From: Candidatus Pelearchaeum maunauluense
Lineage (GTDB): Archaea; Thermoproteota; Nitrososphaeria_A; Caldarchaeales; Caldarchaeaceae
Direction: 5' to 3'
DNA length: 64,000 bases
Assembly (NCBI GenBank): GCA_030059675.1
Contig: JANVYQ010000002.1
Coordinates: 18,260 to 82,259, forward strand
The translations under genes and the position numbers were made by a program. The notes beneath the pieces are model-generated. The model did not search any database. It was not told the origin of the DNA and worked only from the letters and a program-made list of their open reading frames with translations. Below, piece after piece: positions 1,978-59,379 of this stretch (within the stretch, counting starts at the first letter, position 1; every line of letters starts with the position of its first letter).

Positions 1978-2081
1978 GCCGTGCTAATAATCATTATCAC
2001 CCATCCACTTAAAGCATAAGCTTTGGCTAATAGTGGGAAATATTTACTATTAGGTGATATGATGTTTCAGATGTAGGGTGA

Positions 2082-2384
2082 TGTGGGCTGGCTGAAGATA
2101 GGGAGGATGTTGAACGTTTAGCAAGAGCCTTCGCAGCTCTGGGAAACCCCGTAAGGCTTAGAATATTACGAATACTCTCAACATCTGATAGGCCGCTTCA
2201 CATTAAGGCAATAGCAAAGCTCACCAAGACACGTTATAATGCCGCCTATAAACATGTAAAGATGTTGGAGGAAGCTGGGCTGATTAACATCTTTGAGGTT
2301 GGGCGCTCGCGTGTTCTCTCTATTAGGTCGCCTCAGCTTGTCGAGCAGGTGTGGAGTTTCGGTAAAAACTTTACCGAAAGGTGA
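2082..2384 (+). CDS. ArsR-family winged-helix transcriptional regulator (no canonical start codon in frame)
   Basis: Manual translation gives ...ERLARAFAALGNPVRLRILRILSTSDRPLHIKAIAKLTKTRYNAAYKHVKMLEEAGLINIFEVGRSRV..., the ArsR HTH signature. The frame is open only from 2082 (after TGA at 2079) and contains no ATG/GTG/TTG before the conserved helix. Confidence 0.55.
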   Translation, partial: CGLAEDREDVERLARAFAALGNPVRLRILRILSTSDRPLHIKAIAKLTKTRYNAAYKHVKMLEEAGLINIFEVGRSRVLSIRSPQLVEQVWSFGKNFTER

Positions 2385-2459
2385 TAATAATATTCTAAAA
2401 AATTGTCAATAACTTTAACCATGTAAAACTTTAATTAGCAGATAAATCCATTTATCGTC

Positions 2460-3092
2460 ATGAATTTAGGAAAACAAGTTGCTGGGGCCTCAGCCCTAGC
2501 GGCGGCAGCCTACGCGATGGCGCTGATGAAGCTCGGAGTAAGTTTCCCCATACTCCCGTTCCTCAAGTTTGACTTCGCCGAGATACCCGACACGCTGAGC
2601 TTCCTCCTCTTTGGATGGAAGATGGGGCTACTCACAGCAGTAGCGCACTGGCTGGCTCTCCTCATAAACCTCTCCCAACTCACACTAGCACCCCCAGGAG
2701 TTCCACAACTAATGAAGCTCCTCGCGGTACTCTCAATGTTCGTAGGACTGGCAGCAGCCCAGAAACTATTCGCAAGACTTCATGACGAGAAGAAAAAAGC
2801 AATAGGCTACACTATACTAGGCGCGATAACACGAACCCTCATAATGGCACCCATAGTCTTTGCTCTCTACTACATACTCCTGCCAACAGTCTATCTACCC
2901 TTCGCCAAGAAGATGCTCACCGCGGCAGGTTTCGCTGTTGAGGGAGACTTCCTGATAGCTAGCATGATGACGCTGCTAACCAGTATATTCAACGCTCTAC
3001 ATGCAATACTAATAATCCCGATAAGCTACTCGATAAGGGCGGCTGTTGTTCGTGCAATCAGGCCCTTCGTCGCGCAGCCACAATCGAGATGA
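2460..3092 (+). CDS. integral membrane protein, function unknown
   Basis: 210-aa ORF with 5-6 predicted hydrophobic helices. TATA-like AAACTTTAATTAG lies ~25 nt upstream. Confidence 0.5.
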   Translation: MNLGKQVAGASALAAAAYAMALMKLGVSFPILPFLKFDFAEIPDTLSFLLFGWKMGLLTAVAHWLALLINLSQLTLAPPGVPQLMKLLAVLSMFVGLAAAQKLFARLHDEKKKAIGYTILGAITRTLIMAPIVFALYYILLPTVYLPFAKKMLTAAGFAVEGDFLIASMMTLLTSIFNALHAILIIPISYSIRAAVVRAIRPFVAQPQSR

Positions 3093-4266
3093 CATCATGA
3101 GACTTGAGCTTATAATCGTCTCCCAGCCTCATTCCTGTTTTTGCGTCAATAGCATATAGGAAGCTCTCGCCCAGGTCTGTGTGTATCTTGTATGCCAGGT
3201 CGCGGGGTGTGGAGCCGCGCTGCACGAGATAGACGTCAGGCAAGACATTACCTTGATGATCGGTTAGCTTATCTGGGTCTTCAACAGGGAAGACAGGTAT
3301 ATAGCCCAGCTTCTCAACATAAGCCTTGTCTATTACCTGTTGCACCCCTGTCCCTCCCCAAGGCTTCAAGACGCGCTCGCGTATGTTTTCAAGTGCGCGC
3401 AGCTGCTGCTGTGTTAGCCGATGACTATCCACAATCTCGAAATCACTGTCGCCAGGGATGTATTTTATCAAGCCCTTCTCAACAGCCAGTCTTAGAACCC
3501 GCTCAGCCTCAGCTGAGCATGGAACAACGTCATAACCAGCGCTCTTCAGACGGGTAATGCCATCATGGGCTTGTTTCATATCCGCCTTATTGGCGGCAAC
3601 TACTATCGGCTTAGTAGCTCGTCTTATCGCTGTAGCAAGCTTGGCCAGCTCTTCGTCACCCCATCTAGTTGGACGCGCCTCGTCTAGACGTAGCTCGTCA
3701 AGAACTGCGTGGATGTGGTTCTCAGATACCCCCAGACCTGAGAGCTTCCGCGCAAGCTCAGCCCTGAGATTCAACTGCCTAGCCTCAGCACCACGCGAAA
3801 TACGCGGCCAGTCCCGTTTTATCAAACCAGCTATCCAAAGATCTATCTCTCGTTCTACAATCTCAACATCAAGTAGGGGATCATGGGTTGATGGCTCCAC
3901 AGGTGTTCCATCATCAGCAGTAGCACCAGCAGCGTCGCATACAATAATGAGCGCAGACGCCTGCCTAATATCATCCAAGAACTGAAGACCAAGACCACGT
4001 CCAGCATGAGCGCCTGCAATAATCCCAGGGCAGTCTATAACCTGTATAGGCACAAGCCTTATACCATCAACGCATAAAGAGTTGCGAGGATTATCCTGCA
4101 CACCCAAGCTCTTACATACGCAGGGAGTTCGTAGATGCGTTACACCCACATTGGGCTTGGTTGTCGTGAAGGGGTAGTTAGCCACCTCAACAGGAACTAG
4201 GGTAAGAGCCGAGAAGAACGTACTCTTACCAACATTTGGTTTTCCAACTATCCCCGCAAGCTCCAC
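3058..4266 (-). CDS. YchF/Ola1-family (Obg-like) GTPase with C-terminal TGS domain
   Basis: G1 motif GKPNVGKSTFF, NKAD G4 motif, and a C-terminal TGS-like segment (DDYKLKSHDVISIV). 402 aa. Confidence 0.7.
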   Translation of the reverse strand: MELAGIVGKPNVGKSTFFSALTLVPVEVANYPFTTTKPNVGVTHLRTPCVCKSLGVQDNPRNSLCVDGIRLVPIQVIDCPGIIAGAHAGRGLGLQFLDDIRQASALIIVCDAAGATADDGTPVEPSTHDPLLDVEIVEREIDLWIAGLIKRDWPRISRGAEARQLNLRAELARKLSGLGVSENHIHAVLDELRLDEARPTRWGDEELAKLATAIRRATKPIVVAANKADMKQAHDGITRLKSAGYDVVPCSAEAERVLRLAVEKGLIKYIPGDSDFEIVDSHRLTQQQLRALENIRERVLKPWGGTGVQQVIDKAYVEKLGYIPVFPVEDPDKLTDHQGNVLPDVYLVQRGSTPRDLAYKIHTDLGESFLYAIDAKTGMRLGDDYKLKSHDVISIVAARRRA

Positions 4267-4323
4267 AATAGCTTATAACAAATAGAACGTTAAGTATTTT
4301 GTCAATGGTGTTTGTGTTGATAA

Positions 4324-4797
4324 TTATCTCAGGAGTTTGGGGCTGAGGCTTAGGTTTGTGTCGTTTTTGATTGCTGGGTGGTGTGGGTCTACAGCTATTA
4401 CCTCAAACCACTTGTATAGACTATCGTATGCGAGTGGATACGCACCTAAGACATGCAGGTTTGGATAGCGTTTCCTAACCTTATTGATGGCCTCCTCCTT
4501 CATGGTGACATTTACCTTGTGCTTTACTACGCCTATGGCTTTTGGCCTCCTTCCGGCTCTTGGCCTAGGTTTCTGGAACCCTCCCTTCCTGACACGCACC
4601 CTCAGTACTACTACGCCCTGTTTAGCGCGATAGCCCAGTTGCCGCGCCCTGTCTATACGCAGTGGCCTCTCAACCCTAACTATAGACTTCTCACGCCTCC
4701 ACTTCATTAGCCGCTTCTTCATCAGCTCCCTAAGCTCTTCTGGCCGCTTCCTCCACATCTGCTGGAGCACACTGTACAGAGATGTCAAGGCCTCCAC
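4324..4797 (-). CDS. rpl15e: 50S ribosomal protein L15e
   Basis: 157 aa. The RPKAIGVVKHK...YPNLHVLGAY... pattern is typical of L15e. Confidence 0.85.
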   Translation of the reverse strand: MEALTSLYSVLQQMWRKRPEELRELMKKRLMKWRREKSIVRVERPLRIDRARQLGYRAKQGVVVLRVRVRKGGFQKPRPRAGRRPKAIGVVKHKVNVTMKEEAINKVRKRYPNLHVLGAYPLAYDSLYKWFEVIAVDPHHPAIKNDTNLSLSPKLLR

Positions 4798-4901
4798 TCT
4801 CCCTATGCTCCATGACTCTCTTCTATCCGCCTCTTAAACCCTTATCCCGCCTCCCTTGCCATGCATAAAGCCCTAAAACCCGCCTCTCGCCCCCTCTCTA
4901 G

Positions 4902-5342
4902 ATGTTGGGAGCCGCCATGCTCAGTTTTAGACTTACAGCCCTCCGCGCGCGTGTCTTATGCTACTCAACGGAGAACCCCACTAAGGTTAGGAGAGCGCTG
5001 AGCAATCTGCTAGGCGATACAAATCTACAACTCACCTCAAAGAAGGTTGAGGGATACTATGGAGACCCCATATACATAATAGAATACCGAACCAGCGATT
5101 CTAGGATTATTGATAGAGTTTTTTCAGGTCTCTTACGTGGGCTTGGAGGGCTTATGAGGCTGGCCATCGAGGAAGGGCTTGAAATGACCTCTAAAGAGCA
5201 TGGAAGGATACATCTAAGACTGGATAAGCAGGCAGCTTACCAGGGTAGGTATGAGTTGTGCGACGCTGATGCGGTGAAGCTGGAGTTCAGCTTTGAGGGA
5301 GACCCGCGCGAAGTGTTTGAAGAGGGGGGCCAGCAATCCTGA
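4902..5342 (+). CDS. DUF54/COG1325 protein (predicted RNA-binding protein of the archaeal exosome/RNase P superoperon)
   Basis: 146 aa. Its position between L15e and Rpp30 matches the conserved archaeal superoperon order L15e-COG1325-Rpp30-Pop5. Confidence 0.5.
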   Translation: MLGAAMLSFRLTALRARVLCYSTENPTKVRRALSNLLGDTNLQLTSKKVEGYYGDPIYIIEYRTSDSRIIDRVFSGLLRGLGGLMRLAIEEGLEMTSKEHGRIHLRLDKQAAYQGRYELCDADAVKLEFSFEGDPREVFEEGGQQS

Positions 5343-5980
5343 GCAGGCGTTTCATAGACTTCTGGGTCAAGGCTAGAACCCTTGAAGAAGCTGAGAAGCT
5401 ACTGGAGAGACTCTCGTCCCTGGGCTTCTCCGCTTGCTGCCTAGAGACGGGAATGGAAGGTAAGGAGTACAAAGAAGTGGCTGAAGTGGGAGTAGCTTAC
5501 AAGATGGAGGTTGTCCGCAAGAGGGTTGTGGAAGCGCGTAGCAGGATTGATGTGCTCCAAGCTCTGAGGAAGAAAAAACCAAGCGAGATATGCGCAGTAA
5601 CTCCAAGGACACGCGAGGCTTTCTTGGTGGCTGCGCGTGATGAAAGGGTTGATACTATAATAATACATGAGGAGCTGGTGGAGTTGGATAGGCATATTCT
5701 AAAAGTTCTCAAGAACTTTCTAGAGCTACCGCTGGATACGGTCTTTAAAGCAATTGACGACAGTACTGTGCTTACCCGCCTGGTTAATGTCCTCCGAGTA
5801 GTAGCTGCGGTGGAGCTTCCCCTTATCATATCAAGCGGCGCATCCCTGCCTGAGCGTTTACGCTCACCACGTCAGCTTGCAGCAGTACTTAACGCATTTG
5901 GGATAGAGCAGGTGAAGAGCCTTGACGCAGTATCCAACATACCTGAACAAATACTGGGTAGGTGGAGGGCGGTGAAGTGA
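5339..5980 (+). CDS. rnp3: RNase P protein component 3 (Rpp30). Only the 3' part (5453..5980) begins with ATG.
   Basis: The frame is open from 5321 and encodes a conserved Rpp30-like N-terminus (FIDFWVKARTLEEAEKLLERL...) ahead of the first ATG. The C-terminal signature IISSGASLPERLRSPRQLAAVLNAFGI matches the Rpp30 ISSDA...RsP motif. Confidence 0.7.
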   Translation: MSRRFIDFWVKARTLEEAEKLLERLSSLGFSACCLETGMEGKEYKEVAEVGVAYKMEVVRKRVVEARSRIDVLQALRKKKPSEICAVTPRTREAFLVAARDERVDTIIIHEELVELDRHILKVLKNFLELPLDTVFKAIDDSTVLTRLVNVLRVVAAVELPLIISSGASLPERLRSPRQLAAVLNAFGIEQVKSLDAVSNIPEQILGRWRAVK

Positions 5981-6309
5981 GTGAGCGCGTCTTAAGACTT
6001 CGGCGGAGGTACGTGGCTGTCTGCTGCTATCCTAATGAGCGGCAGCCTGAACAGCTATGGGATGCGGTTAGGCTAGTCTTTGTAAAACTATTCGGCGAGC
6101 TGGCACTAATTGAGTCAGGTTTACGCAAAGTTAGGAGCAGACACCATAAGGACTTGCTGATAATAGCGTGCTATCATTCATGGCTTCCTAAAGCCCTCGC
6201 GGCCATCACGTTGGTAAAGAGTGTCAACGGAATGGATGTCTCGCTGGATGTTATCACGGTCTCAGGAACTATAAGGGCGTTGAGGAGGAGAATTGTTGCC
6301 CAGAGATAA
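5962..6309 (+). CDS. rnp2: RNase P protein component 2 (Pop5)
   Basis: 115 aa, overlaps the rnp3 stop. Pop5-like LRRRYVAV...DLLIIACYH pattern and operon context. Confidence 0.7.
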   Translation: MEGGEVSERVLRLRRRYVAVCCYPNERQPEQLWDAVRLVFVKLFGELALIESGLRKVRSRHHKDLLIIACYHSWLPKALAAITLVKSVNGMDVSLDVITVSGTIRALRRRIVAQR

Positions 6310-6937
6310 TAGAATGTTAGCGGCTCTCTTAGCATGGGCTCTGGCTCTTTTGGCTCTCAACCTTTCAGCCTACATACCTGGGGAAAACGAGCTTCTCCTC
6401 TTTATAAGGCCGCAGGTTGCTCTAGCATTAGTTGCCATTCCACTAGCCCTAGGCAGCAAAGAATCGCGCAAGACGTTCCGCACATTTACTAAAAACACGA
6501 CAAAGAAGATAGCGCCGATAACAATCATCGCTATCGGCGCTGCGCAACTCGTGGGAATATCTACACTCCTATTATACCCACCAGATACATACTACATAAA
6601 TATCCTTAAGCAATTAGCGCCTAGCGATGCATGGGACCTGATGATTAAGCTGGCGCTCACCTGGGTTGTTGTGGCGCCTGTTGAGGAAATATTCTTCAGG
6701 GGAGTAATTCATACTTGGCTTAGACAGGTTCTCCCATCTCGTCCATCGGCGGCTTTCTCAAGCATCATATTTGCGGTGAGCCATCTAGACCCCTGGAGGT
6801 TCCTCCCTACTGTAATAATCGGCTACGCGACTGCGGTGGTGCTTGAACGAACTAAAACTATCATGAGTAGTATAGTTGTGCATGGTTTAAACAATAGCGC
6901 GGCTCTCGTCTTAGCTCTGTTTTGGCTTTACCCCTGA
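6293..6937 (+). CDS. CPBP-family (CAAX/Abi-type) intramembrane metalloprotease
   Basis: Multi-TM protein with motifs EEIFFRG, FAVSH and HGLNN, matching the CPBP EExxxR / FxxxH / HxxxN signature. Confidence 0.7.
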   Translation: MLPRDNRMLAALLAWALALLALNLSAYIPGENELLLFIRPQVALALVAIPLALGSKESRKTFRTFTKNTTKKIAPITIIAIGAAQLVGISTLLLYPPDTYYINILKQLAPSDAWDLMIKLALTWVVVAPVEEIFFRGVIHTWLRQVLPSRPSAAFSSIIFAVSHLDPWRFLPTVIIGYATAVVLERTKTIMSSIVVHGLNNSAALVLALFWLYP

Positions 6938-7830
6938 GCGCGGCCGCAGTTAGGGCAGAACTTTTCACCCTCTTCCATGGCCTCACCGCAAAACTTACAC
7001 TTATACGATTGCTCTGGATTTTCTCCAGGGTTTTCCTTTGCAAGAAGCTGTAGCTCCGCCTCGCGACGTTTCTCAAACTTCCTAGCTATTATTACCGAGA
7101 GCTCAAGAAGCAGGACTAGAGGGAGGAAGAGAACGCTATTACCGACGAGCCAGCCATCAGGGGTTATTAGCGCTATAATTATGTAGAGACCACCGTAGAT
7201 GTAGAGCCTATTCTTTCTGAATAGCCTCGTGCTCACTACGCCAAACCTCACCAGAACCACGAAGACAGCGGGAGCTGTGAATACCAACCCGATTAATAAT
7301 ACGGTAGTAAATACGAGCGCGTAGAAATCCATTAGGAGGACTAGAGGTTCTGCCCCGGTGAACTCAAAGAAGATGAGCATCGTTCTAAATATTAGAGGCG
7401 CGGCGACGAAATAGCCGAAGGCCACACCTACTAGAAATAACCCTGTAAATGCTGCGACGAATCCATAGATTATCCGTCTCTCATGTGGGTAGAGTGCTGG
7501 GTCTATGTAGGCGTAAATCTCGTACGCGATTATTGGTGAGCTGGTAATCATGCCTAGGAAGATGGCTCCTAGGAAGTAGAGCTCCAGAGGTGATGTTATC
7601 CTTCCCGCGATTAGATTGACCGCATCGCCAGCTATGTCTGTCTTTACCTTCTCTATGAGAACCGAGATGAAGGGCCTGTAAAGCCCTGATATTGGGTCTA
7701 TGTTTAGGTCTGCGGGGAACGCGAGCCAAAAAATCGTGCTTATTATGAGCGCTAGAAATATAACCTTAACTCTATCCCTAAGCTCGCGTATATGCTCTAT
7801 AAATGGCATCTCCTTATCTTTAGACCGCAT
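6928..7830 (-). CDS. tatC: Sec-independent twin-arginine translocase subunit TatC with C-terminal Zn-ribbon extension
   Basis: The N-terminus FIEHIRELRDR is the TatC signature and there are 6 TM helices. The C-terminal ~40 aa carry CKFCG...CPNCG. Confidence 0.8.
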   Translation of the reverse strand: MRSKDKEMPFIEHIRELRDRVKVIFLALIISTIFWLAFPADLNIDPISGLYRPFISVLIEKVKTDIAGDAVNLIAGRITSPLELYFLGAIFLGMITSSPIIAYEIYAYIDPALYPHERRIIYGFVAAFTGLFLVGVAFGYFVAAPLIFRTMLIFFEFTGAEPLVLLMDFYALVFTTVLLIGLVFTAPAVFVVLVRFGVVSTRLFRKNRLYIYGGLYIIIALITPDGWLVGNSVLFLPLVLLLELSVIIARKFEKRREAELQLLAKENPGENPEQSYKCKFCGEAMEEGEKFCPNCGRAQG

Positions 7831-7861
7831 CGGCCCCGCCTACGCAGCTATCCCGAAATGC

Positions 7862-8110
7862 TTATTGCGTGGATTTAAGCTTCTTCCGAATCTCTTCCAC
7901 GATTTCGTCCTCGCTCCTGCATTCCACATCTATCCCTAGAGCCTCGGCAACCTTGTATATGTCGCTACTAGACTTCTCCTCTCTAACACTTTCGCGATAC
8001 TCCCTGACGAGACGCCCCATTGAGCGGCCGAAGTCGGAGAGAAGCTTGGGTTTAAAGAATATAATAAATAGTATAACCAGTAGAGCTATCTCAAGCGGCC
8101 CCAGTGGCAT
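7862..8110 (-). CDS. tatA: twin-arginine translocase subunit TatA/E
   Basis: 82 aa: N-terminal TM helix followed by F-K-P-K and an amphipathic helix (LGPLEIALLVILFIIFFKPKLLSDFGRSMG). Confidence 0.8.
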   Translation of the reverse strand: MPLGPLEIALLVILFIIFFKPKLLSDFGRSMGRLVREYRESVREEKSSSDIYKVAEALGIDVECRSEDEIVEEIRKKLKSTQ

Positions 8111-8120
8111 GTTCGTTTTT

Positions 8121-8450
8121 TCAGCCCTGCTTCTGCTGTGCCTTATTCACTATCTCTCGCGCTATCTCATCGCGCGTCTTGCCCTCTGTTGAGATACCTA
8201 AAGACTTGGCAACCTCCAGTAGCTTATCATCGCCCGCCTGGGCTGCTGCTACACTACCAGAGGATGTGGAGATTATAGACGGCTTCACTACACTTGACGT
8301 TTCCTCTTCTAAAGCTTTTGACGCCTTCTCAAACTCTCTCTTCGCCTGACCTATGGAGCGGGCTATCTTCGGAAGCTTCTCAGGACCCCATAGCAGCAGG
8401 ACTATTATAATCACGCCGACGACAATCCATTCAATACCGTATATCGGCAC
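8121..8450 (-). CDS. tatA: twin-arginine translocase subunit TatA/E (second copy)
   Basis: 109 aa. WGPEKLPKIARSIGQA is the TatA hinge/amphipathic signature. Confidence 0.8.
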   Translation of the reverse strand: MPIYGIEWIVVGVIIIVLLLWGPEKLPKIARSIGQAKREFEKASKALEEETSSVVKPSIISTSSGSVAAAQAGDDKLLEVAKSLGISTEGKTRDEIAREIVNKAQQKQG

Positions 8451-8581
8451 GGCACTAACACACTCCGAAAATCCCTTCTCAGCTAGCTATATATAAGGTT
8501 TGTCAAAAACCTCGCAACACCATAGTAGGTAAGAAATGGTTAAAGGCTCTGAAGGGAAGGCTACTGGCTGGTGCGTGAAGG

Positions 8582-9049
8582 ATGCCCGAAGTAGGTGATA
8601 AAGCGCCAGACTTCAGCTTAGTAGACCAAGAGAGGAAGCCAAGAACATTGAGCGAGTTTCGTGGAAAGAAGGTTGTCCTGGCATTTTTCCCAGGTGCTTT
8701 TACTTCTGTATGCACTAAGGAGATGTGCACGTTCCGCGATAATATGGCTAAATTCAACCAGCTTGATGCTGTTGTTCTGGGTATAAGCGTAAACGACCCG
8801 TTTACGCAGAAGGCTTTCGCAGAGGCCAACGATCTTGGATTCCCATTATTGTCTGACTATGCGCGAGAGGTTGTTCGTAAGTATGGTGTGTACCACGAGA
8901 ACTTCGCTGGTCTTGAAGGATACACGGCAGCAAAGCGTGCAGTGTTCATACTTGATGGCGAGGGAGTGATTAAGTATAAATGGGTGAGCGACGACCCTAC
9001 AAAAGAACCCAATTACGATGAGATAATCTCTGCGCTCTCAAAACTTTAG
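8582..9049 (+). CDS. bcp: peroxiredoxin, Bcp type (thiol peroxidase)
   Basis: GDKAPDF...FFPGAFTSVCTKEMC is the AhpC/TSA Bcp catalytic motif. 155 aa. Confidence 0.85.
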   Translation: MPEVGDKAPDFSLVDQERKPRTLSEFRGKKVVLAFFPGAFTSVCTKEMCTFRDNMAKFNQLDAVVLGISVNDPFTQKAFAEANDLGFPLLSDYAREVVRKYGVYHENFAGLEGYTAAKRAVFILDGEGVIKYKWVSDDPTKEPNYDEIISALSKL

Positions 9050-9387
9050 GCTGTAGCGCCTAATCTGGCGATAAGCTTCTTAAGAGCTGAGGCAAGGTCA
9101 ATTATTTCTTCATCAGTCCGCAGATGCTCGCGAAGCGCATTAATCATACGCTGCTCAAGTATCTTCGCACCCGCTCCAAACATCTCTCTGAGAGCTGCCA
9201 AGAATTCCTCAGGCTTATACGGTATGTCGCGCCGGGATACGTTATACCTATTCGCCAAGTGCCAGAAAATAACTCTCTTGGAAGTCTCGCCTAACGGCTC
9301 TAGGGCCTCGTCTATAATATTTAGAACTACTGTTATGAGGTTGTTGTTTTCCGTGTCTTTGTAGGCTGCTGATTGTCTGGCTGCCAT
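9046..9387 (-). CDS. hypothetical protein
   Basis: 113-aa ORF. No recognised family. Confidence 0.35.
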   Translation of the reverse strand: MAARQSAAYKDTENNNLITVVLNIIDEALEPLGETSKRVIFWHLANRYNVSRRDIPYKPEEFLAALREMFGAGAKILEQRMINALREHLRTDEEIIDLASALKKLIARLGATA

Positions 9388-9496
9388 TTACCGTAATTCA
9401 TTTGATATTCCACAGTACTATAAAAACATATCCAAAGGCGCTATATTGGCGGTCATAACAGAATAAACAATGGCCAAACGTTTAGCATGAATAACT

Positions 9497-10255
9497 TTAC
9501 CGCATAACAGCGCCGCCGTCAATTATTATTGTTTGGCCGTTTATGAATGAGGCCTTATCGGAGCAGAGGAAGGAGACGACAGATGCAACTTCGCGCGGCT
9601 CGCCCCACCTGTTTGCTGGCGCCTCTGCGGCTGCTGCTTTAAACTCCTCCTCGCTCAACACGCTTATAGTTGGTTTAGTCTTTATGTTCCCAAGCGCTAG
9701 GGTGTATGCTCTTACGCCATGCTTGGCGTATTCATGCGCTATGTGCTTGGTCAGGCTTATGAGCGCTGCCTTTGCGAAGGTATATGCTGCCCCATGGCTC
9801 TGTCCAGTAATAGCGGGTGTGGAGCTGATGTTTATCACGACTCCCCCACGCTGTTTAACCATCACGGGAATGGCCCTAATCGCACAGCGTAGGCTCCCTA
9901 GGAAATCAACCTGCATGACGGCTAGAACCTCTTCCTCCCTAACCTCATGCAGAGGTTTAAACCACAAATCCCTATTCATGGGATAGCCAGCTACATTAAC
10001 CAGACAATCCACCCGTCCAAACTCTCCCAGAACCATGTTGAAGAAATTATCAACGCTGGAAGAGCTTGATACATCAAGCTTTTTCACGCGAATCTTATCG
10101 CTGGATAAACGCTCTGCGAGCTCTCTGAGCTTATCCTCACGTCTCGCCCCTGCGCATACTATAGCGCCCTCGCTGACCAGCTCCTCAACCACCACGGAGC
10201 CTATCTCACCGCTTGCTCCAGTAACTATACATACACGACCATCCAGCAACGGCAT
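9497..10255 (-). CDS. short-chain dehydrogenase/reductase (SDR) family oxidoreductase
   Basis: N-terminal TGASGEIGS Rossmann motif and a YTFAK catalytic Y-x3-K. 252 aa. Confidence 0.8.
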   Translation of the reverse strand: MPLLDGRVCIVTGASGEIGSVVVEELVSEGAIVCAGARREDKLRELAERLSSDKIRVKKLDVSSSSSVDNFFNMVLGEFGRVDCLVNVAGYPMNRDLWFKPLHEVREEEVLAVMQVDFLGSLRCAIRAIPVMVKQRGGVVINISSTPAITGQSHGAAYTFAKAALISLTKHIAHEYAKHGVRAYTLALGNIKTKPTISVLSEEEFKAAAAEAPANRWGEPREVASVVSFLCSDKASFINGQTIIIDGGAVMR

Positions 10256-10297
10256 ATTACATTGCTGCGAGTCTAGGTATAATAAATTAATCGCTGG

Positions 10298-10543
10298 TTA
10301 GCTGTTCATAGTTTTCGCAGTCTGCTCAGCTATCTTGGCCATGCTGAGTATATCATCTATCGTCGCCAGCAGGCTTTGTAACGATCTCCGACAATATACC
10401 TTGAATATAACGCGCTTTCCCTCCAGCTCTGCGTTTACCTCAAGCCCTGCTGGTAGAGGCTTATTGTCGGGAAACAGGGCTTTGAAGACTACCTCAGCTA
10501 CATGCTCATCCTCAAACTCCATCTCAACGCGCGCGTTGCTCAT
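10298..10543 (-). CDS. pcc1: KEOPS complex subunit Pcc1
   Basis: The conserved core ARVEMEFEDEHVAEVVFKALFPDN...GKRVIFKVYCRRSLQSLLATIDDILSMAKIAE matches Pcc1. The likely start is the internal Met (MSNARVE) just downstream of the recJ-like stop. Confidence 0.6.
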   Translation of the reverse strand: MSNARVEMEFEDEHVAEVVFKALFPDNKPLPAGLEVNAELEGKRVIFKVYCRRSLQSLLATIDDILSMAKIAEQTAKTMNS

Positions 10544-10544
10544 C

Positions 10545-11984
10545 CTAGCCTGCTGCACGTAGAGCCTCACCCACCATCCTGTCAAGGTCTGAGAGGAAGC
10601 GTAGTATTCTCTCTGCAGGTATATCAGCCCCGGCGGCCACGTTATGCCCGCCGCCTCTGCCTCCATACTCACCAGCTAGTTTGGAGAGTATAGCGCCCAA
10701 ATCAAGGCCGCGCTCCACAAGCTCGCGCGAAGCACGCGCAGATATCTTAACCGCAGCGCCCGCATCAGCTATAGCTATCAAAGGCTTATCACGCGGTAAC
10801 ATTCCAGAAGACGAGAGTATTGAGGCAACAGAGCTTACCTGGCGTTCATTTATGACCTCACCACCCTTAAGAACGACTATGTTATCCATCTGCTCTATAA
10901 CGCCTGGCTTGGCTACGTATTCTATGCTCCGCGCCAGTTGGGCGCGGTAGTTCTCTAATACGCGTTGTGTTTCTTCTAGAACCTCGCCGCGTGCTCCCAT
11001 GGCTACTGCTATCCCCAGCCAGGCGTTATCTGTCTTCCCGCACGCGTTGAGTAGCGTAGCAAACTCACGTCCATCACGGAGATACGTCCAGGGGTCTTCG
11101 CGCACAAGCTCATAGACTGTTCCTACAAGCTCGTTGGCTATGCTTGAAGGTAGGTTACGTGCAACCAAGTATTCAATTAAGCCGTTAAAGAGCTTCTCTT
11201 TCTCCTCGCTGGTTAGGTCTGAGAGCACGCGCCATTGTTCTCCATTCTTCACGGGTATTCCAAGTGATGTTAGGAAGTTGTAGCACGCGCTTTCTTGGCC
11301 TGATAGTCCTGGTATGTATGGGCTGGTGGTGCTTGCTAGTGCTAGATGCACTGGCCTGAAGTTCCTGCCGTATAGTATGAGATCGTCGTAGGTGGCGAGT
11401 AGGCCGTTCTTCACAGCGTCGTCCACGATTAGCGCGTTAAGCCCTCTGAGGGAGCGTTTGGAGTCCTTATCCTGCAAATCTCCTAGAGCGCCTACTATCG
11501 CTATAGGCGAGTAGCTAATGTTCTCTTCGTTCATGGCTTTAGCGACGAAGTAGGCCACGCCAGATGCGCTTATCTCGGTAGCGCCGTCAAACCCGTGTTG
11601 ATGCGGATTTACATGAGACCAGCCGTATGGCAGCGCCTCCTCCGCTGGGGCATGGTGGTCTAGGATTACGATCTCCTTACCGCCTATCCTCCTCTTAAGC
11701 TCAGGCAGGTAGCCGCTTCCCATATCCGTGAAGAGTATGTATTCAGACTCCACATACCCCTCGTCCAATAGCTGGAAGAACTCCTCTATGCGCGGAAGTG
11801 AGCGCGCCTTGAAGGCTGCATCCTCGCGGCGCAGCGCTCCAGCTATTATGCCGCATGAGGACAGCGCATCCGCGTCGTTATGTGTGAAGATATGTATGTA
11901 AGCGCCTTCCTTAACCCATTGCCTAATTCTCTCGGCCGCGTCTTCCACTACTTGCATGAATGATTCTAAGCTACCGCTCAACAT
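10545..11984 (-). CDS. DHH-DHHA1 phosphoesterase, archaeal RecJ/Cdc45-like (GAN-type)
   Basis: DHH motifs (IFTHNDADALSSCGII, ILDHH) and DHHA1 GGGH (GGRGGGHNVAAGA). 479 aa. Confidence 0.75.
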   Translation of the reverse strand: MLSGSLESFMQVVEDAAERIRQWVKEGAYIHIFTHNDADALSSCGIIAGALRREDAAFKARSLPRIEEFFQLLDEGYVESEYILFTDMGSGYLPELKRRIGGKEIVILDHHAPAEEALPYGWSHVNPHQHGFDGATEISASGVAYFVAKAMNEENISYSPIAIVGALGDLQDKDSKRSLRGLNALIVDDAVKNGLLATYDDLILYGRNFRPVHLALASTTSPYIPGLSGQESACYNFLTSLGIPVKNGEQWRVLSDLTSEEKEKLFNGLIEYLVARNLPSSIANELVGTVYELVREDPWTYLRDGREFATLLNACGKTDNAWLGIAVAMGARGEVLEETQRVLENYRAQLARSIEYVAKPGVIEQMDNIVVLKGGEVINERQVSSVASILSSSGMLPRDKPLIAIADAGAAVKISARASRELVERGLDLGAILSKLAGEYGGRGGGHNVAAGADIPAERILRFLSDLDRMVGEALRAAG

Positions 11985-12026
11985 GCATCACGCTCTCCAG
12001 CGGTGAGCAGGTCTCCAGTCTCCTAC

Positions 12027-12461
12027 TTATGCGAGCTGGAGCTCCCAGTTCTGGGGCAGAACGCCTTCCCGCTTATAATACTTCACTAACCGGCTAATCT
12101 TAGACTCAACCAGCTGTAGCCTATGAACATTATACCTATCAGACTTGAAGCGCTTTAGGTGTAGGCGCATACGCCGCGCCCGCTCCAGTAGGCTGGCGAG
12201 GTCTTCAGGTATCGGCGGGGCTAGGTTATTCTCCCTAAGTATCTGGAGCACGGTCTTTCCTGTTACAGCCTTAACCAGCGGCACGGCATACTGGTCGCGG
12301 AGAATTACTCCTATCATGCTTGGTGGGTGCCCCTCTTTTGCCAGCTTCACGACCAGCGCCTCAACCTCTTCGGGTGTTAGCTTAAACCATGCGGGAGAGA
12401 TTTTGCTTATCGGCCGCGTAGAGTTGGACTTTCCGCGCTTCCTAGCGTGCATCCTGGCCAT
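12027..12461 (-). CDS. rps15: 30S ribosomal protein S15 (uS15, S13e)
   Basis: 144 aa. N-terminal MARMHARKRGKS and the S13e/S15 fold signature. Confidence 0.85.
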   Translation of the reverse strand: MARMHARKRGKSNSTRPISKISPAWFKLTPEEVEALVVKLAKEGHPPSMIGVILRDQYAVPLVKAVTGKTVLQILRENNLAPPIPEDLASLLERARRMRLHLKRFKSDRYNVHRLQLVESKISRLVKYYKREGVLPQNWELQLA

Positions 12462-12533
12462 GTCTTCAGACCTGCTAGGGCTTCTGGCGGGGCTGATTTA
12501 TAAAGGTCGTGCCGTCCAACATAGGGATTAACG

Positions 12534-13088
12534 CTACCTCGGCTCTTGGAGCCATGCTATGAGCTTGCGGGCAGCCCTGCCGCGGTGGCTCACGACGTTC
12601 TTCTCGCTACACCCCATCTCTGCAAACGTCTCGTCCCTACCCTCTGGTATGAATATTGGGTCAAAGCCGAAGCCGCTTGAGCCACGTGGCTTGTCAGCGA
12701 TACGGCCACGACACTCTCCGCGGAATACGCGCATACCATGCTCAGGGCTGTAGAAGGCTATCACAGACTCAAACCTAGCGTCGCGCGGCCTGCCAGCAAC
12801 TAGGCGGAGAAGACCATCAACACCTATGGTTCTATAGGCGTAAGACGAGTATGGGCCTGGAAAGCCGTTTAGAACCTCTACGAATAGGCCAGCATCTTCT
12901 ACGATGACGGGCTTCTTTAGTATATTATAGGCTTGTAGGCAGCTGAAGACAGCTATCTCCTCTAGGCTGTCTGCCTGAATCTCAACGGTTCTCAGCGGCT
13001 CTACTTCCAGCTCAAGCCCATGCTGCCGGAAGAGTTGCTGGAACTCCCGCGCCTTACCCGGGTTTGAGCTTACCAAGACAGGCTTCAA
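12534..13088 (-). CDS. non-canonical purine NTP pyrophosphatase (Ham1/ITPase)
   Basis: The motifs SSNPGKAREF, FVEDAGLFVEVLNGFPGPYS and GFGFDPIF are Ham1-family signatures. Confidence 0.85.
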   Translation of the reverse strand: MKPVLVSSNPGKAREFQQLFRQHGLELEVEPLRTVEIQADSLEEIAVFSCLQAYNILKKPVIVEDAGLFVEVLNGFPGPYSSYAYRTIGVDGLLRLVAGRPRDARFESVIAFYSPEHGMRVFRGECRGRIADKPRGSSGFGFDPIFIPEGRDETFAEMGCSEKNVVSHRGRAARKLIAWLQEPR

Positions 13089-13720
13089 GCCCTTTCTCTC
13101 ACCACATACCTACCGCGCATCCTTATCTCCCTCACCTTCTCCAAAACCCTACCAGCATACTCCAGCCCCACCACAGAGCTGTAGCCGCGCATGAAACTAG
13201 CCATGAATGCCTTGCGTAGGTTGGGGTACGTGCTCTCTAAAGACCGCTCCAACAGATGGATATCTACGGCATAGTCCTCCATGTCTTGCGTGAAGGAGCT
13301 TAAGCCGAAGTCCGCTATCCAAGGGCTATGCAGTTCATCTATTATTATGTTGGAGAGTGTTAGGTCGCCGTGTGCTATTCCGTCGCTATGCATCTGCGCG
13401 GTTATCCTGCCCAGCTTCTCTGCAACATCCCCAACTCGGTGTAGCTCCGCGCTGGAGAGGTATGAGCGTAGCTCCACCCCCATTATGCGCTGCATGTAAA
13501 GAGATGAGCTGGCCAGGTCTATGAAGAAGATTACCGGAACAGGAACCCCTATACCATGAAGCCGCCTAATTATACGAGCTTCATGCGCTGTTCTCTGCCG
13601 CCTTATCTGCTCATCTATCTCCCTACGCCTATAGCGTTTAGGCGCCCTCTGTTTCAGAACCAGCTCCCTGCCACGCCACTTTACTGCCTTGACGACAGAC
13701 TCGGCTGCTATTCGTATGAT
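13085..13720 (-). CDS. bud32: KEOPS kinase Bud32 (PRPK). The conserved N-terminus precedes the first ATG at 13495.
   Basis: The ATG-initiated ORF (13085..13495) holds the catalytic loop HGDLTLSNIII and DFGLS. Manual translation upstream in the same frame gives LDIIRIAAESVVKAVKWRGRELVLKQRAPKRYRRREIDEQIRRQRTAHEARIIRRL (Gly-loop and VAIK-like motifs) with no ATG/GTG/TTG. This frame overlaps the kae1 3' end by 30 nt in the -1 frame. Confidence 0.65.
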   Translation of the reverse strand: MIRIAAESVVKAVKWRGRELVLKQRAPKRYRRREIDEQIRRQRTAHEARIIRRLHGIGVPVPVIFFIDLASSSLYMQRIMGVELRSYLSSAELHRVGDVAEKLGRITAQMHSDGIAHGDLTLSNIIIDELHSPWIADFGLSSFTQDMEDYAVDIHLLERSLESTYPNLRKAFMASFMRGYSSVVGLEYAGRVLEKVREIRMRGRYVVRERA

Positions 13721-13737
13721 GTCCAGCTCCTCAAAGT

Positions 13738-14724
13738 CTAGGGACTCCAGCGCACATCCACCTCATCAATACGCGCCCGCGGCCTAACACGGCTCTCCTC
13801 CAGGCTTATCGTCATGCCTGCCGTGTAGTAGAGTAGCCCGGTCCAGGCTATCATGGCGCCGTTATCGCCTGCATACTCGTCTGGAACTATGTGTAGCTTC
13901 GCCTGATGGTCTTCGCACATCAGCCTTATCATCTCAACGAGTCGCCTGCTCCTGGCTAAGCCGCCCACGAGGAGAATCTCACGCTTCTCCAAATATGCTA
14001 ACGCTCGTTCAAGGACCTCCACGAGCATGCTATACACGGTCTCGGTTATGCTGAGCGCGGCATCAGCCACCGCTGCGCCCTCCTCCAGAAGACGCTCTGC
14101 TGCTGTCAGCAGCCCTGAGAAGGATACATCCATCCCCTTAACCTTATAAGGGAGGCTGTGTATCTTCTTCCCTTCCCGCGCGATTATTTCTGGCTGGGGC
14201 ATAGGGCCTATTCCAGCGGTTATGCCGAAGGAGTCTAGACAGTTTCCAGCAGCTATGTCCAGCGTTTCCCCCAGTATCCTATACCGCCCCTCCACCAGGG
14301 CTGTTATGAGCGTATTCCCACCAGCTACATAGAGGACAACAGGGTCGCGGCAGCCAGTGGCTAGCTTACCAACCTCAATATGCGCTATGCTGTGATTAAC
14401 CCCCACCAGCGGTTTGCCTAGTGTTGCCGCTATAGCCCTCGCCACAGTTGCGCCTGTCCTTAAGCATGGCCCCATCCCAGGGCCTATGGAGAACGCTACG
14501 ACGTCAATATCGCTGGGTTTGAGTCTTGCTTTCTCTAATGCTTCCCTAACCACCTCAAGTGCGTGTTTAGCATGGTGCTGCGACGCCTCGCGCGGGTGTA
14601 TCCCTCCTTTCTCAGGCTTATACACCCGCATGGCGTTGGAGAGTATGCTCCCATCTGACCGCGCTACCCCGACGCCGAATGTATGCGCCGTTGATTCTAT
14701 GCCAAGGCAGACGACATGCCCCAA
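13738..14724 (-). CDS. kae1: tRNA N6-adenosine threonylcarbamoyltransferase Kae1
   Basis: The conserved N-terminus [18 protein letters not shown] most likely begins at a TTG (14724). The listed ATG ORF adds a ~130-aa low-complexity extension antisense to infB. Kae1 HxxH and metal-binding motifs are present. Confidence 0.8.
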
Positions 14725-39903: not shown

Positions 39904-40424
39904 ATGTTTGAGCTGGTCTTCTACGGCAGGGGAGGACAGGGGTTGTTACTGCCTCTAGGCTCTTGGCTGAAGCTGCCCTGATTGAGGGGAAGTATATCCA
40001 GGCCTTCCCAGAGTTTGGGCCTGAACGCTCAGGCTCGCCAGTCAAGTCTTATGTAAGGATATCCGACCCCATGATAGAGACCCATTCGCTCATCTACAGC
40101 CCAGATATACTAACCGTGATAGACCGTAGGATAGCTTCCTCCCCTAATGTATTCTCGCTCTGCAAGGAGGGTGGTCTTGTGGTGCTTAACTCTGTGGAGG
40201 TGAGGAGTAAGCCGCGTCATGTTAGGTTGGCTCGTGTTGATGCCCGCGGAATAGCGGGCTCGCTGGGAAGTCTTAAGCTGGAGAACACGGCAACCTTGGG
40301 AGCCCTGGCAAGAGCTTCTCGTATAGTAGAGTTGGCAGCCTGGCTAAGGCGTTGGAAAGTAGGTTCGGTGGTGAGGTGCTTGAGAAGAACCTCAAAGCGC
40401 TACATGAAGGCTTTAGGGAGGTGA
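39904..40424 (+). CDS. porG: pyruvate/2-oxoacid:ferredoxin oxidoreductase gamma subunit, interrupted by a -1 frameshift in a GGGG run
   Basis: ATG 39904 encodes MFELVFYGRGGQG and then runs into a stop. The conserved continuation VVTASRLLAEAALIEGKYIQAFPEFGPERSGSPV... is in the -1 frame (ORF 39963..40424). The frames join at cagggg, 39937..39942. Confidence 0.75.
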
Positions 40425-40727: not shown

Positions 40728-41889
40728 GGCTCTCTCAGGCTCCGAGGCTGTTGCGCTGGCTGTGAAGCAGGCTAACGTGGATGTGGTGGCAGCATACCCG
40801 ATAACGCCGCAGACAATAATAGTAGAACGCCTCGCAGAATACATAAATAACGGCGAGCTGGACGCAGAGTACGTACCCGTAGAGTCGGAGCACTCAGCAC
40901 TCTCAGAATGCGCGGCAGCCAGCATGACTGGAGCAAGGGTATTCACGGCAACGGCAAGCCAGGGACTAGCCCTAATGCATGACATGATGTACATAGCCGC
41001 TGGTCTTAGATGTCCTGTTGTAATGGCTGTAGCGAATAGGGCGTTGTCCGCGCCAATCAACATACACCGCGACCACTCTGATATTATGGGCTCACGCGAC
41101 TCTGGTTGGGTTCAGATATTCGTGGAGAATAATCAGCAGGCCTATGACATGACGCTGGAAGCGTTTAAGCTCGCTGAGGACCATGATATTCTCCTTCCCG
41201 TGACCGTCAATATGGATGGGTTCTTCGTATCCCACGCCGTTGAGGGTGTGGAGACGCTGGACGACTCTAGGGCGGCTGGCTTCCTACCTCCTAGAAAGCC
41301 GCTCCACTACCTAGACGCATCTAAACCCATGTCATTCGGAGCGCTGGCATCTCCAGAATGGTACTACAGGATTAGGCATCAAGTGGTGGAGGCGATGGCG
41401 AGAGTTGAGCAGAAGCTGGAAGAGGTTGAGCGGGAGTATCTGCGTGTGTCTAGAAGGAGCTACGGCGCCCTGGGCTTAAGCCAGGTTGAGAATGCGGAGA
41501 TTGTGATACTGTGTGCGGGTGCTGTTGCTGGTACTGCGCGCACAGCTGCTAGACGGCTGAGGGAGAGAGGCGTGAAGGTTGGCGTAGTGAGCGTGAGGCT
41601 CTACAGGCCATTCCCAGCAGAAAAGATAATCCACGCTATATCCAACGCTGAAGCCCTCTTAGTCATAGACCTAGCCATGAGCCCAGGCGCCCCATCGGCA
41701 CCGCTTGGACAGGATATTAAAGCGGCGCTCTTTGACGCTGGCGTTAGGCTGCCCGTATGGAATGTGGTCTGCGGGCTAGGGGGGAGAGATGTCTCCGAGG
41801 CTGAGATAGAGAAGCTCGCGACAACCCTCGCAGAAAGCACCACAAGCACACCGCGCGAGAGGATAACATACTGGGGTGTAGCTGTATGA
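40690..41889 (+). CDS. porA: pyruvate:ferredoxin oxidoreductase alpha subunit
   Basis: 399 aa. N-terminus GSEAVALAVKQANVDVVAAYPITPQT is typical of PorA. Confidence 0.85.
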   Translation: MLWWRRLVTGMAKALSGSEAVALAVKQANVDVVAAYPITPQTIIVERLAEYINNGELDAEYVPVESEHSALSECAAASMTGARVFTATASQGLALMHDMMYIAAGLRCPVVMAVANRALSAPINIHRDHSDIMGSRDSGWVQIFVENNQQAYDMTLEAFKLAEDHDILLPVTVNMDGFFVSHAVEGVETLDDSRAAGFLPPRKPLHYLDASKPMSFGALASPEWYYRIRHQVVEAMARVEQKLEEVEREYLRVSRRSYGALGLSQVENAEIVILCAGAVAGTARTAARRLRERGVKVGVVSVRLYRPFPAEKIIHAISNAEALLVIDLAMSPGAPSAPLGQDIKAALFDAGVRLPVWNVVCGLGGRDVSEAEIEKLATTLAESTTSTPRERITYWGVAV

Positions 41890-42856
41890 CTGTAGTTAAA
41901 GAGATAGTCTCCGCGAGAGACCTGTATGGAGAGGAGCTTGTGGCACCATGCACATCCTTCGACTACGAGGACTACGAGGTCATAGTAGTGGACGACTCAA
42001 ACGACGAGACGACCAGGAAGCTAGAAGCTTGGAGAGACCATCCCAAGGTTAAGATCATACATAGGAGTTGTAGAGAGAGCTGGAAGGGCACGACTTGAAT
42101 GCAGACGAGAACTGGATAACTAAGGCAACTAACATACTCTTCGCAACAACATACAAAGTCGAGCTAGAGGCGCGGAGTAGACTGAGGCTATTCATACCTT
42201 TGCTGGGAAGCGTATTCATGGTAAGGACAAATATACTGAAGGACTTGAAGTTTGAACATGACATAACAGAGAACTACAACCTCTCGGTGAGGATGTATCT
42301 AAACGGCTATAAAATAGTCTATGACTCGGCCATAGACGCGTCTGGAGAATGTCCATCAAGGCTACATAGGGTTGCTAGACAGGTTGCGAGATGGGCTGAG
42401 GGGACAACGAGGAACTTCAGGAAATATTTCTGGAAGGTGATGAGAAGTAACAAGCTTACCATGAGGGAGAAAGCCGAGTTCATGTTATCGGGGCTCTCAT
42501 ACCTCTCCGCTACCCTACTAGTCTTCGCAGTAATAGGTGGAGTAGTTGTGACGGCCATGATAGATTATGTTCTATCACAGCCACTAACTTACATAAGCGT
42601 CATGCTAGCAACGCTGGGCTTGCCAGCAACCATGATAATGCAAAGCATAGCAATAGCCAAGGAGGGAGAAATCAGAAGACTTACTTGGATACCATACGCT
42701 CTAATACTAGGATACCTAATAGCACCAGTATCGGCATACTACGCTCTAAAGGGACTAATAAGCAACAACGGAGAATTCCACAGAACATACAAGACAGGAC
42801 ACCTAGTAAACCGTAAATCAGCTGAGATAAGGACCTATTTAGAATACCCAAAATGA
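41886..42856 (+). pseudogene. family-2 glycosyltransferase (processive, QxxRW type) split into two ORFs with an internal deletion
   Basis: ORF 41886..42098 has the GT-A start (YEVIVVDDSNDET) and ends after ~70 aa. ORF 42095..42856 resumes at a DAD-like motif and carries QVARW (QxxRW) plus C-terminal TM helices. About 80 aa of the catalytic domain are missing between them. Confidence 0.6.
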
Positions 42857-42931: not shown

Positions 42932-43768
42932 ATGGGCGAAGAGGTTACGAAGGCTTACGCAGTAAAGGTCGTCGGCAGGGTGCAGAGGGTTGGCTATAGA
43001 CGCCTCATTCTTGAGGCCGCTCAAGAGCTCGGCTTGGCTGGCTACGTTAAGAACGAGAGAGATGGATCGGTCACGGTCTTCGTTCAAGGCAGTGAGGAGA
43101 ACATAGCGAGATTCCTCAAGTTGATAAAGTCTCCTCCACCGCCTGCCGTAGTCAAGACATTTACGGAGAAGCTAACCAAGCCTAAGCCCCAGCTCAAAGC
43201 CTTCACGATAAAGTTCGGCACAATACAGGAGGAGTTACAGGAGGGCTTTGGCGCCATGCAGAGTATCTTCATGGACTACTGGGGGGAGTTCAGGGATTAC
43301 AGACAAGAGTTCAGAGACTTCAGGCAGGAGTTCAGGGGATTCCTGTCTGACTTCAGCGACTACAGACAGGAATTTAGGGACTTCAGGCAGGAGTTCAGGG
43401 ATTACAGACAAGAGTTCAGAGACTTCAGGCAGGAGTTCAGGGGATTCCTGTCTGACTTCAGCGACTACAGACAGGAATTTAGGGACTTCAGGCAGGAGTT
43501 CAAAGACTTTAGAGAGGAGCTCAGGGATTATAGGCAGGAATTCAAAAGCTTTGCATCGGAGTTTAGAGATTACAGGGAGGAGTTCAGGGAGTTCGCAAAA
43601 AGGACGAACGAGAACTTTAAGCTAATCCTCGAGAAATACGGCGAGATCTCCGATAAGCTAACAGTTATCCTAGACACGCTAGTGAAGGAGTCGAAGGAGA
43701 CTAGGGATAGGCTCGCCGAAGCAATACAGCTACTAAGACAAGCAATAGATAAGATCACTAAGGAATAG
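42932..43768 (+). CDS. acylphosphatase-like domain fused to a Phe-rich heptad-repeat (xFRQEFR) coiled-coil region
   Basis: N-terminus VVGRVQRVGYRRLILEAAQELGLAGYVKNERDGSVTVFVQG matches the acylphosphatase signature. It is followed by ~16 heptads DYRQEFR/DFRQEFR and contains a perfect 2x105-nt tandem duplication (43286..43390 and 43391..43495). Confidence 0.7.
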   Translation: MGEEVTKAYAVKVVGRVQRVGYRRLILEAAQELGLAGYVKNERDGSVTVFVQGSEENIARFLKLIKSPPPPAVVKTFTEKLTKPKPQLKAFTIKFGTIQEELQEGFGAMQSIFMDYWGEFRDYRQEFRDFRQEFRGFLSDFSDYRQEFRDFRQEFRDYRQEFRDFRQEFRGFLSDFSDYRQEFRDFRQEFKDFREELRDYRQEFKSFASEFRDYREEFREFAKRTNENFKLILEKYGEISDKLTVILDTLVKESKETRDRLAEAIQLLRQAIDKITKE

Positions 43769-44099
43769 ACTTATAATGGTACCAATGCAAAAGACCATTA
43801 ACCAATTCTTCAAAAACCACGATAATACATTCTATTATTCCTCAATATTCGGCACGGCCTTGACGTTGCGCTTAATCCCAGAGCTTAAAATTTATCCATT
43901 CCCCATAGGCTATGAAACTATAACGTACTATGCTCCTTTCTTGCAGCACGGCCCGACGAATTTTCAATCCATATTTTGGGATACATTACATACTGAAGGC
44001 CGAGGTGGTCTTAGGGTTCAGCGATTTCTCAGCACTCAAAGTGAGCGCGCCCCTCCTCAGACTTCCTCCTAAGCGATTCTTCCCAGTCTTTATTGGTTT

Positions 44100-46957: not shown

Positions 46958-47024
46958 ATAGTCAGGAAAGGTTAAAGCTTTAAGAATGCCTTAATAACTC
47001 TTAAGAAACTGAGTTAATGGAAGC

Positions 47025-59366: not shown

Positions 59367-59379
59367 CTATATTTTCTTT

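Follow-up and report, generated by a model that had tools for sequence, protein, structure and literature searches.

Several codons other than ATG, GTG, and TTG can serve as starts of prokaryotic genes, and CTG, ATT, ATC, and ATA are included as rare starts in NCBI translation table 11; a few of them have been shown experimentally to work in bacteria. For example, infC of Escherichia coli has an AUU start that is part of the autoregulatory loop of initiation factor IF3. Other arrangements are relevant for genes that adjoin or overlap. Kae1 and Bud32 form fusion proteins in some Euryarchaeota, such as MJ1130 of Methanocaldococcus jannaschii, and programmed +1 frameshifting in prfB takes place at the site CUU UGA C. 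Where gene pairs overlap, termination-reinitiation has been demonstrated, both in an archaeon and in a bacterium (Huber et al. 2019, PMC6728339). Here, we describe three genes, for an ArsR-type regulator, the RNase P subunit Rpp30, and the KEOPS kinase Bud32, within 64,000 nucleotides (nt) of contig JANVYQ010000002.1 from Candidatus Pelearchaeum maunauluense; this whole stretch is referred to as the window. Comparison with related genomes suggests that all three genes are intact and functional, that their starts changed from a canonical codon to CTG in Pelearchaeum, and that translation most likely begins at the CUG. The organism belongs to the Caldarchaeales, formerly known as Aigarchaeota. 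Its metagenome-assembled genome, 146_bin.21, was obtained from Illumina data for a fumarole at Mauna Ulu (PMC10547907).

An earlier note on this DNA had pointed out that the three genes have no canonical start ahead of their conserved residues, and that a CTG lies within a few codons of the upstream stop in each. Both statements are borne out by the reading frames. The ArsR-like frame opens at 2082, after a TGA at 2079-2081, has CTG 2088 as its third codon, and reaches its first canonical start at ATG 2262 (codon 61). The Rpp30 frame opens at 5321, has CTG 5339 as its seventh codon, with an ATC at 5336 and an ATA at 5354, and first offers a canonical start at ATG 5453 (codon 45). On the minus strand, the Bud32 frame opens at 13762, has CTG 13750 as its fifth codon, and contains its first canonical start at ATG 13495 (codon 90). 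Thus, 60, 44, and 89 codons, respectively, precede the first ATG, GTG, or TTG, values that are outstanding in the table of all open frames. The proposed gene models are as follows.

2088..2384, plus strand: ArsR/HTH_20-type regulator, 98 amino acids (aa); proposed start CTG 2088-2090, stop TGA 2382-2384
5339..5980, plus strand: Rpp30, subunit of RNase P, 213 aa; proposed start CTG 5339-5341, match to PF01876
13085..13750, minus strand: Bud32, KEOPS kinase, 221 aa; proposed start CTG 13750-13748, with a 13-nt overlap with kae1 in the −1 frame

Invariant residues and Pfam domains sit within the start-less stretches of all three genes. Matches to PF12840 for the ArsR-like protein (43.3 bits, cut-off 27) and to PF01876 for Rpp30 (45.8 bits, cut-off 35) are clear, and PF06293, PF00069, and PF01163 (Kdo/Pkinase/RIO1) all exceed the Pfam cut-off for Bud32. 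Numbering residues from the proposed CTG, HTH_20 covers 18-67 of the ArsR-like protein, with the first ATG at residue 59; RNase_P_p30 covers 12-199 of Rpp30, with the first ATG at 39; and the Kdo/Pkinase domains begin at residue 8 or 34 of Bud32, with the first ATG at 86. Products made from the first ATG would lose the whole helix-turn-helix (HTH) of the ArsR-like regulator, about 27 residues at the beginning of the p30 domain of Rpp30, and the entire N-lobe of the Bud32 kinase. The AAES motif, whose onset in Bud32 had been placed at about 13720, is actually encoded at 13708-13697. The syntenic neighbors, a PF01877 gene and Pop5 for Rpp30 and Kae1 and Pcc1 for Bud32, agree with these identities.

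A scan anchored on TatC, with one genome taken per species, provided 26 Caldarchaeales loci that are syntenic with 1-18 kb of the window. The closest relative is a sister species, for which there are three independent assemblies: L001 (ENA), L002 (Logan), and L031/L005 (GenBank WAQC01, ‘Pelearchaeum sp. S146_89’). Its proteins are 86-96% identical to those of the window, and synonymous divergence per site (dS) is about 0.35-0.5. Comparing gene starts between orthologs had been proposed earlier as a check, and this showed that relatives start at the positions of the CTGs or, for Bud32, one codon before. Non-canonical initiation, one of the explanations offered by the earlier note, gains its support from here, since the CTGs that it pointed out are positional homologs of canonical starts. 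The correspondence is exact at 26 loci for Rpp30 and at two for the ArsR-like gene; for Bud32, the CTG matches the second codon of a conserved start dicodon, which is itself a TTG start in L006.

The Rpp30 comparison, a codon-by-codon line-up of 26 loci from other Caldarchaeales (L003 and L004 included), found a canonical start aligned with CTG 5339 in every one (13 ATG, 12 TTG, and 1 GTG). It opens a motif of the form [start]-x-R-R/K-F/Y-V/I-D in the relatives, and CTG-AGC-AGG-CGT-TTC-ATA-GAC occupies this position in the window and in all three sister-species sequences. Within the window, the CTG overlaps the stop codon of the preceding PF01877 gene as CTGA, and the same junction is found in L001, L002, and L031; in L003 it reads TTGA, with a TTG start. 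ATC 5336 was also considered as a start and was rejected because the sister species has GCC there. The features around this junction are given below.

4902..5342, plus strand: PF01877 ‘RNA_binding’ (COG1325) gene, Pfam 1.4e-25; stop TGA 5340-5342
5324..5329, plus strand: GGGGGG run, suspected of an indel and found not to be one; GGAGGG in L001, L002, and L031
5962..6309, plus strand: Pop5/Rpp14 subunit of RNase P, PF01900 7.6e-14; its GTG start overlaps the end of Rpp30, giving an operon context

For Bud32, the comparison covered 13 loci from other Caldarchaeales besides the window and L001. In all 13, bud32 is a separate open reading frame (ORF) in the −1 frame that overlaps the last codons of kae1, and in 12 of them it has its own canonical start at the homologous place; the remaining locus, L007, has CTG there. 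The start region of the relatives follows the pattern [ATG|GTG|TTG]-[CTG|TTG]-GAG-x-[LI]-[DN]-F, and the window and L001 have GCG-CTG-GAG-TCC-CTA-GAC-TTT, so that the dicodon has lost its first codon and retains its second, CTG 13750. Two relatives have comparable arrangements: L006 reads TGG-TTG, where the TTG on the second codon is the only possible start, and L007 reads GGG-CTG, like the window. A second CTG, at 13726, was discarded as a candidate because L001 has CTC at this position. The −1 frame of the overlap with kae1 was described correctly at the outset; its length, given as 30 nt, is 25 nt between the open frames and 13 nt when counted from the CTG. The L-E-x-L-D-F peptide at the N-terminus of Bud32 is conserved across Caldarchaeales, even though it partly overlaps the variable tail of kae1 (13735-13750). 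Selection at this overlap seems to act on the bud32 frame and on a Trp codon of kae1. Two features lie immediately upstream on the same strand, the start of Kae1 being placed by the onset of homology and a list of codons.

13738..14724, minus strand: Kae1 (TsaD family), 328 aa, PF00814 3.9e-74; TTG start 14724, stop TAG 13740-13738
13759..13764, minus strand: Shine-Dalgarno (SD)-like GAGGTG, a 6-mer anti-SD match inside kae1 that precedes the Bud32 CTG by 8 nt

The ArsR-like regulator stands alone behind a 100-nt spacer, with no stop/start overlap. Its homologs are 96-101 aa long and begin at the alignment column of the window CTG, and in L066 (75% identity) and L067 (65% identity) a TTG is aligned with CTG 2088. 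These two genes are syntenic (S3Ae-DUF2095-ArsR), and GGTG motifs precede their TTG starts. In L031, TGA-TGT-GCG-CTG is likewise found at this place, with the same GGGTGAT upstream. In the window, CTG 2088 is the only codon differing from ATG at the first or third position that lies upstream of the invariant residues F17, A19, L20, N22, and P23, and the first ATH codon (ATA, ATC, or ATT), at 2163, falls inside the HTH, after these residues. For these reasons, this gene is the cleanest case for CTG specifically. One further feature precedes it.

2077..2082, plus strand: SD-like GGTGAT, matching the anti-SD complement GGAGGTGATC over 6 nt and located 5 nt before the ArsR CTG; conserved in L031

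Patterns of substitution point to coding function in the start-less stretches. Between the window and the sister species, third positions account for 13/18 differences from the CTG to the first ATG in Rpp30, 23/32 in Bud32, and 14 of the 16 in the ArsR-like gene. The ratio of nonsynonymous to synonymous substitution rates (dN/dS) is 0.054 in the start-less part of Rpp30 and 0.172 in the rest of the gene; the equivalent values are 0.064 and 0.137 for Bud32, and 0.035 and 0.103 for the ArsR-like gene. The third-position bias and low dN/dS indicate that these stretches are coding and under strong purifying selection, and that the genes have been functional since the species split. The same CTGs and frames recur in L001, L002, and L031.

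The sequence context of the CTGs gives a mixed picture. Upstream of the CTGs of the ArsR-like gene and Bud32 lie matches of 6 nt to the anti-SD sequence; matches of at least 6 bases have a background frequency of 1.2% of positions. No such 6-mer match lies before the first in-frame ATG of any of the three genes. Within the window, only about 15% of genes have an SD match of at least 5 bases. The GAGGTG hexamer upstream of Bud32 is embedded in the conserved E-V-[DE]-V codons of kae1, and the same GAGGTGGA/GAGGTCGA is found upstream of canonical Bud32 starts in relatives. Just 1.9% of codons in the window are CTG (ATA, 4.1%), so three of them at positions homologous to starts are not expected by chance. 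TTG makes up about 31% of inferred starts, and a single transition, TTG to CTG, therefore provides a path from a common start codon.

These observations suggest a simple mechanism. The ordinary initiator Met-tRNA would read CUG, with the mismatch at the first base tolerated exactly as at GUG and UUG. Pairing with the SD-like motifs would probably aid the weak codon, through GGTGAT 5 nt upstream in the ArsR-like gene and GAGGTG 8 nt upstream in Bud32. Ribosomes arriving from an overlapping upstream gene would probably help as well, at the CTGA junction of Rpp30 and in Bud32, where the CTG precedes the kae1 stop by 10 nt. From the sequences, we infer that ribosomes initiate at the CUGs with Met as the first residue, and that upstream coupling contributes.

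The three genes share features with each of the systems described above and differ from them in others. They are like the rare near-cognate starts of prokaryotes in the first-base mismatch with the initiator anticodon, in the low expression expected of genes of this kind, and, for the ArsR-like gene and Bud32, in the SD motifs; they differ in being archaeal, in lying within 12 kb of one another, and in being supported by positional homology. Two of them, Rpp30 and Bud32, are normally regarded as indispensable. As in infC, a poor start codon has been kept over evolution in a conserved gene, although the codon here is CUG and no autoregulatory logic is evident. The 4-nt overlap of Rpp30, the 13-nt overlap of Bud32, and the SD motif within the upstream gene resemble termination-reinitiation pairs with ATGA or TGATG junctions (PMC6728339), but the junction here is CTGA rather than ATGA, GTGA, or TTGA, and the ArsR-like gene is alone behind its spacer. 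The position of bud32 directly after kae1 recalls fusions of the MJ1130 type; however, bud32 is a separate −1-frame ORF with its own start here and at 13 other Caldarchaeales loci. Finally, CTT TGA G at 13736-13730, where a +1 shift enters the Bud32 frame, is similar to the prfB site, yet it is a by-product of conserved D-F-E codons, has no SD motif at the appropriate spacing, is absent from Rpp30, and is unconserved for the ArsR-like gene.

Several points weigh against initiation at the CTGs. A 2020 review of archaeal initiation gives only AUG, GUG, and UUG as start codons (PMC7531240). The literature searched yielded no account of archaeal CTG starts, and start codons are not discussed in the Pelearchaeum paper (PMC10547907). 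Conservation of the CTGs in both species is no evidence of selection per se: the overlapping kae1 Trp codon forces it in Bud32, and the upstream TGA fixes the TG in Rpp30. The SD match of Rpp30 is weak, being only 4 nt long and 10-13 nt upstream of the CTG. In L031, the ArsR-like gene has an in-frame GTG eight codons past the CTG, where the window has GTT. Furthermore, a downstream ATA (or ATC/ATT) in Rpp30 and Bud32 could initiate translation with most of the domain kept.

This last point leads to the alternative that Rpp30 starts at ATA 5354 and Bud32 at ATA 13717 (or that an ATC or ATT is used), the CTGs being mere Leu codons or untranslated. It agrees with current annotation: the NCBI proteins P0001 (Rpp30, 208 aa, 100% identical to the window) and MDJ0269420.1 (Bud32, 210 aa) begin at these ATAs, both of which the sister species also has, and the Pfam p30 model begins near residue 6, which is the Rpp30 ATA. 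An exact protein look-up of ten candidate N-termini found the ATA version of Bud32 alone, and exact look-ups of P0001 and of the PF01877 protein of the window matched no contig. However, the motifs F-[VIA]-D-x-W and [VIL]-[IVL]-R-[VI] place both ATAs at conserved hydrophobic positions; as the codons found there in relatives are GTN, GCC, CTN, or ATC, these ATAs are ordinary Ile codons. ATA and ATC codons had been noticed at the outset; they are present as described, and their role as starts is not upheld, as they encode Ile within conserved motifs. The residues between CTG and ATA (S-R-R-F in Rpp30, and the corresponding stretch of Bud32) match residues that are certainly translated in relatives, and an SD motif is absent before the Rpp30 ATA. 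Nor can ATA explain the ArsR-like gene, given that its first ATH codon, as described above, comes too late. We therefore regard ATA initiation as improbable, and the NCBI starts of Rpp30 and Bud32 are probably a few codons too far downstream.

Initiation at an out-of-frame ATG, with a subsequent shift or re-initiation into the gene frame, is a much more doubtful proposition. In the ArsR-like gene and in Bud32, an ATG (2081 and 13757, respectively) precedes the CTG by 7 nt (ATGTGNGCTG), and the mini-frame of Bud32 ends in the prfB-like CTT TGA G, from which a +1 shift would land in the Bud32 frame. In the ArsR-like gene, the mini-ORF (MWAG-stop) ends 3 nt past the CTG, so termination-reinitiation at the CTG itself is conceivable, and all three CTGs are within 10 nt of a stop codon in another frame, which is consistent with reinitiation. 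On the other hand, Rpp30 has no such ATG, and the ArsR mini-frame of L031 terminates differently, with AGA TAA, and has no shift-prone codon there. The ATG itself is accounted for by a G that follows an SD-like GGTGAT or GGTGGAT. Were Bud32 made by a +1 shift, another sequence would take the place of the L-E-x-L-D-F N-terminus that is conserved in the clade, and there is no SD motif at a prfB-like spacing. Least probable of all is that the start-less frames reflect artefact or decay, whether through sequencing or assembly indels, frameshift-dependent fusion, or pseudogenes. Lesions of the indel type do occur in this assembly, in porG (1 nt, in a G4 run) and in a split family-2 glycosyltransferase gene, and it is correct that one extra G after 5329 would fuse Rpp30 in frame to the upstream PF01877 (COG1325) gene. 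However, the frame arrangement is identical in three independent assemblies of the sister species, so the anomaly is not private to one assembly, and the window derives from Illumina data (PMC10547907). The suggestion of a homopolymer indel fails because the G-run reads GGAGGG in all three of these assemblies, with equal length and the same frames. Frameshift-dependent COG1325-Rpp30 or Kae1-Bud32 fusion is likewise contradicted: the orthologs are separate genes with canonical starts of their own at 26/26 Rpp30 and 12/13 Bud32 loci, and there is no slippery site of the form X XXY YYZ. Pseudogenes are excluded by dN/dS values of 0.035-0.064.

How widespread CTG initiation might be was assessed in the 22 genes of 1-16.6 kb that could be mapped against relatives. 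Only the three genes described here are without a canonical start at the homologous place; pcc1, a 23rd gene that was checked separately, has a canonical ATG, aIF5B has ATG, and Kae1 has TTG 14724. A further clear case was not seen elsewhere in the window; other long start-less frames are shadow ORFs, run off the end of the window, or have clear canonical starts. Among distant relatives, 3 of 279 gene instances have no canonical start near the homologous position, and all three have CTG exactly there: an Rce1-like gene in L010 and L012 (about 11487, minus strand; preceded by TGAGGAGCT) and Bud32 in L007 (about 12215, minus strand). Each of the three also has a canonical codon somewhat further downstream, so they are suggestive only. 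These exceptions hint that CTG starts recur across Caldarchaeales. The difference between 3/22 and 3/279 gives a Fisher p of 0.006, which is indicative only, as many genomes of the relatives are close kin of one another. Together with the fact that the relatives' exceptions are all CTG, this difference lends some support to a broader proposal, in which CUG would routinely serve Pelearchaeum as a fourth start codon, in several percent of its genes, indispensable ones among them, and would occur sporadically across Caldarchaeales, through laxer first-base discrimination brought about by changes in aIF1/aIF2, the initiator tRNA, or the 16S P-site. At present, this is a tentative idea that we think is rather unlikely to be correct.

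Other features of the window were also recorded. The gene porG (gamma subunit of pyruvate:ferredoxin oxidoreductase; 39904-40424, plus strand) is frameshifted at the G-run 39939-39942: MFELVFYGRGGQG is read from ATG 39904, and the remainder of the protein (VVTASRLLAEAAL...) is in a different frame. Adding one G to CAGGGGTTG yields a protein whose alignment with orthologs starts at residue 1. An assembly error, a pseudogene, or slippage could each account for this. A metagenome scan with porA recovered three distant loci only. A family-2 glycosyltransferase (41805-42098 and 42074-42856, plus strand) appears to be broken into two frames around 42085-42100, and a segment may be missing between its WKG and LNAD motifs. 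The protein at 42932-43768 (plus strand) has an acylphosphatase-like N-terminus followed by a long run of repeats of the DYRQEFRDFRQEF type. Positions 44000-64000 have a GC content of 0.40-0.47, compared with 0.49-0.56 in the first 44 kb, and contain many small ORFs; this part may be an integrated or mobile region. No tRNA genes were detected by ARAGORN in the 64-kb window, and no Rfam families reached the gathering threshold.

There are direct consequences for annotation. Automatic calls in the sister species truncate the three proteins to an internal ATG or GTG, giving 175 aa for Rpp30, 191 aa for Bud32, and 91 aa for the ArsR-like regulator (truncated calls: L001 2097-2624 and 9734-10309; P0002 and P0011). 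Truncation of the type made by Prodigal loses catalytic or DNA-binding parts of these proteins; mapping starts by anchoring on orthologs gives a better model, and 2088, 5339, and 13750 should be adopted as the starts of the three genes. CTG starts are a known rare phenomenon, and the comparative cases described here, two of them in indispensable archaeal genes, are well supported. This comparative evidence suggests that, in an archaeon, indispensable genes (Bud32/KEOPS and RNase P) can retain CUG as their sole start across a substantial divergence (dS of about 0.5), and it bears on how strictly the eukaryote-like initiation machinery of archaea reads the first base of the start codon.

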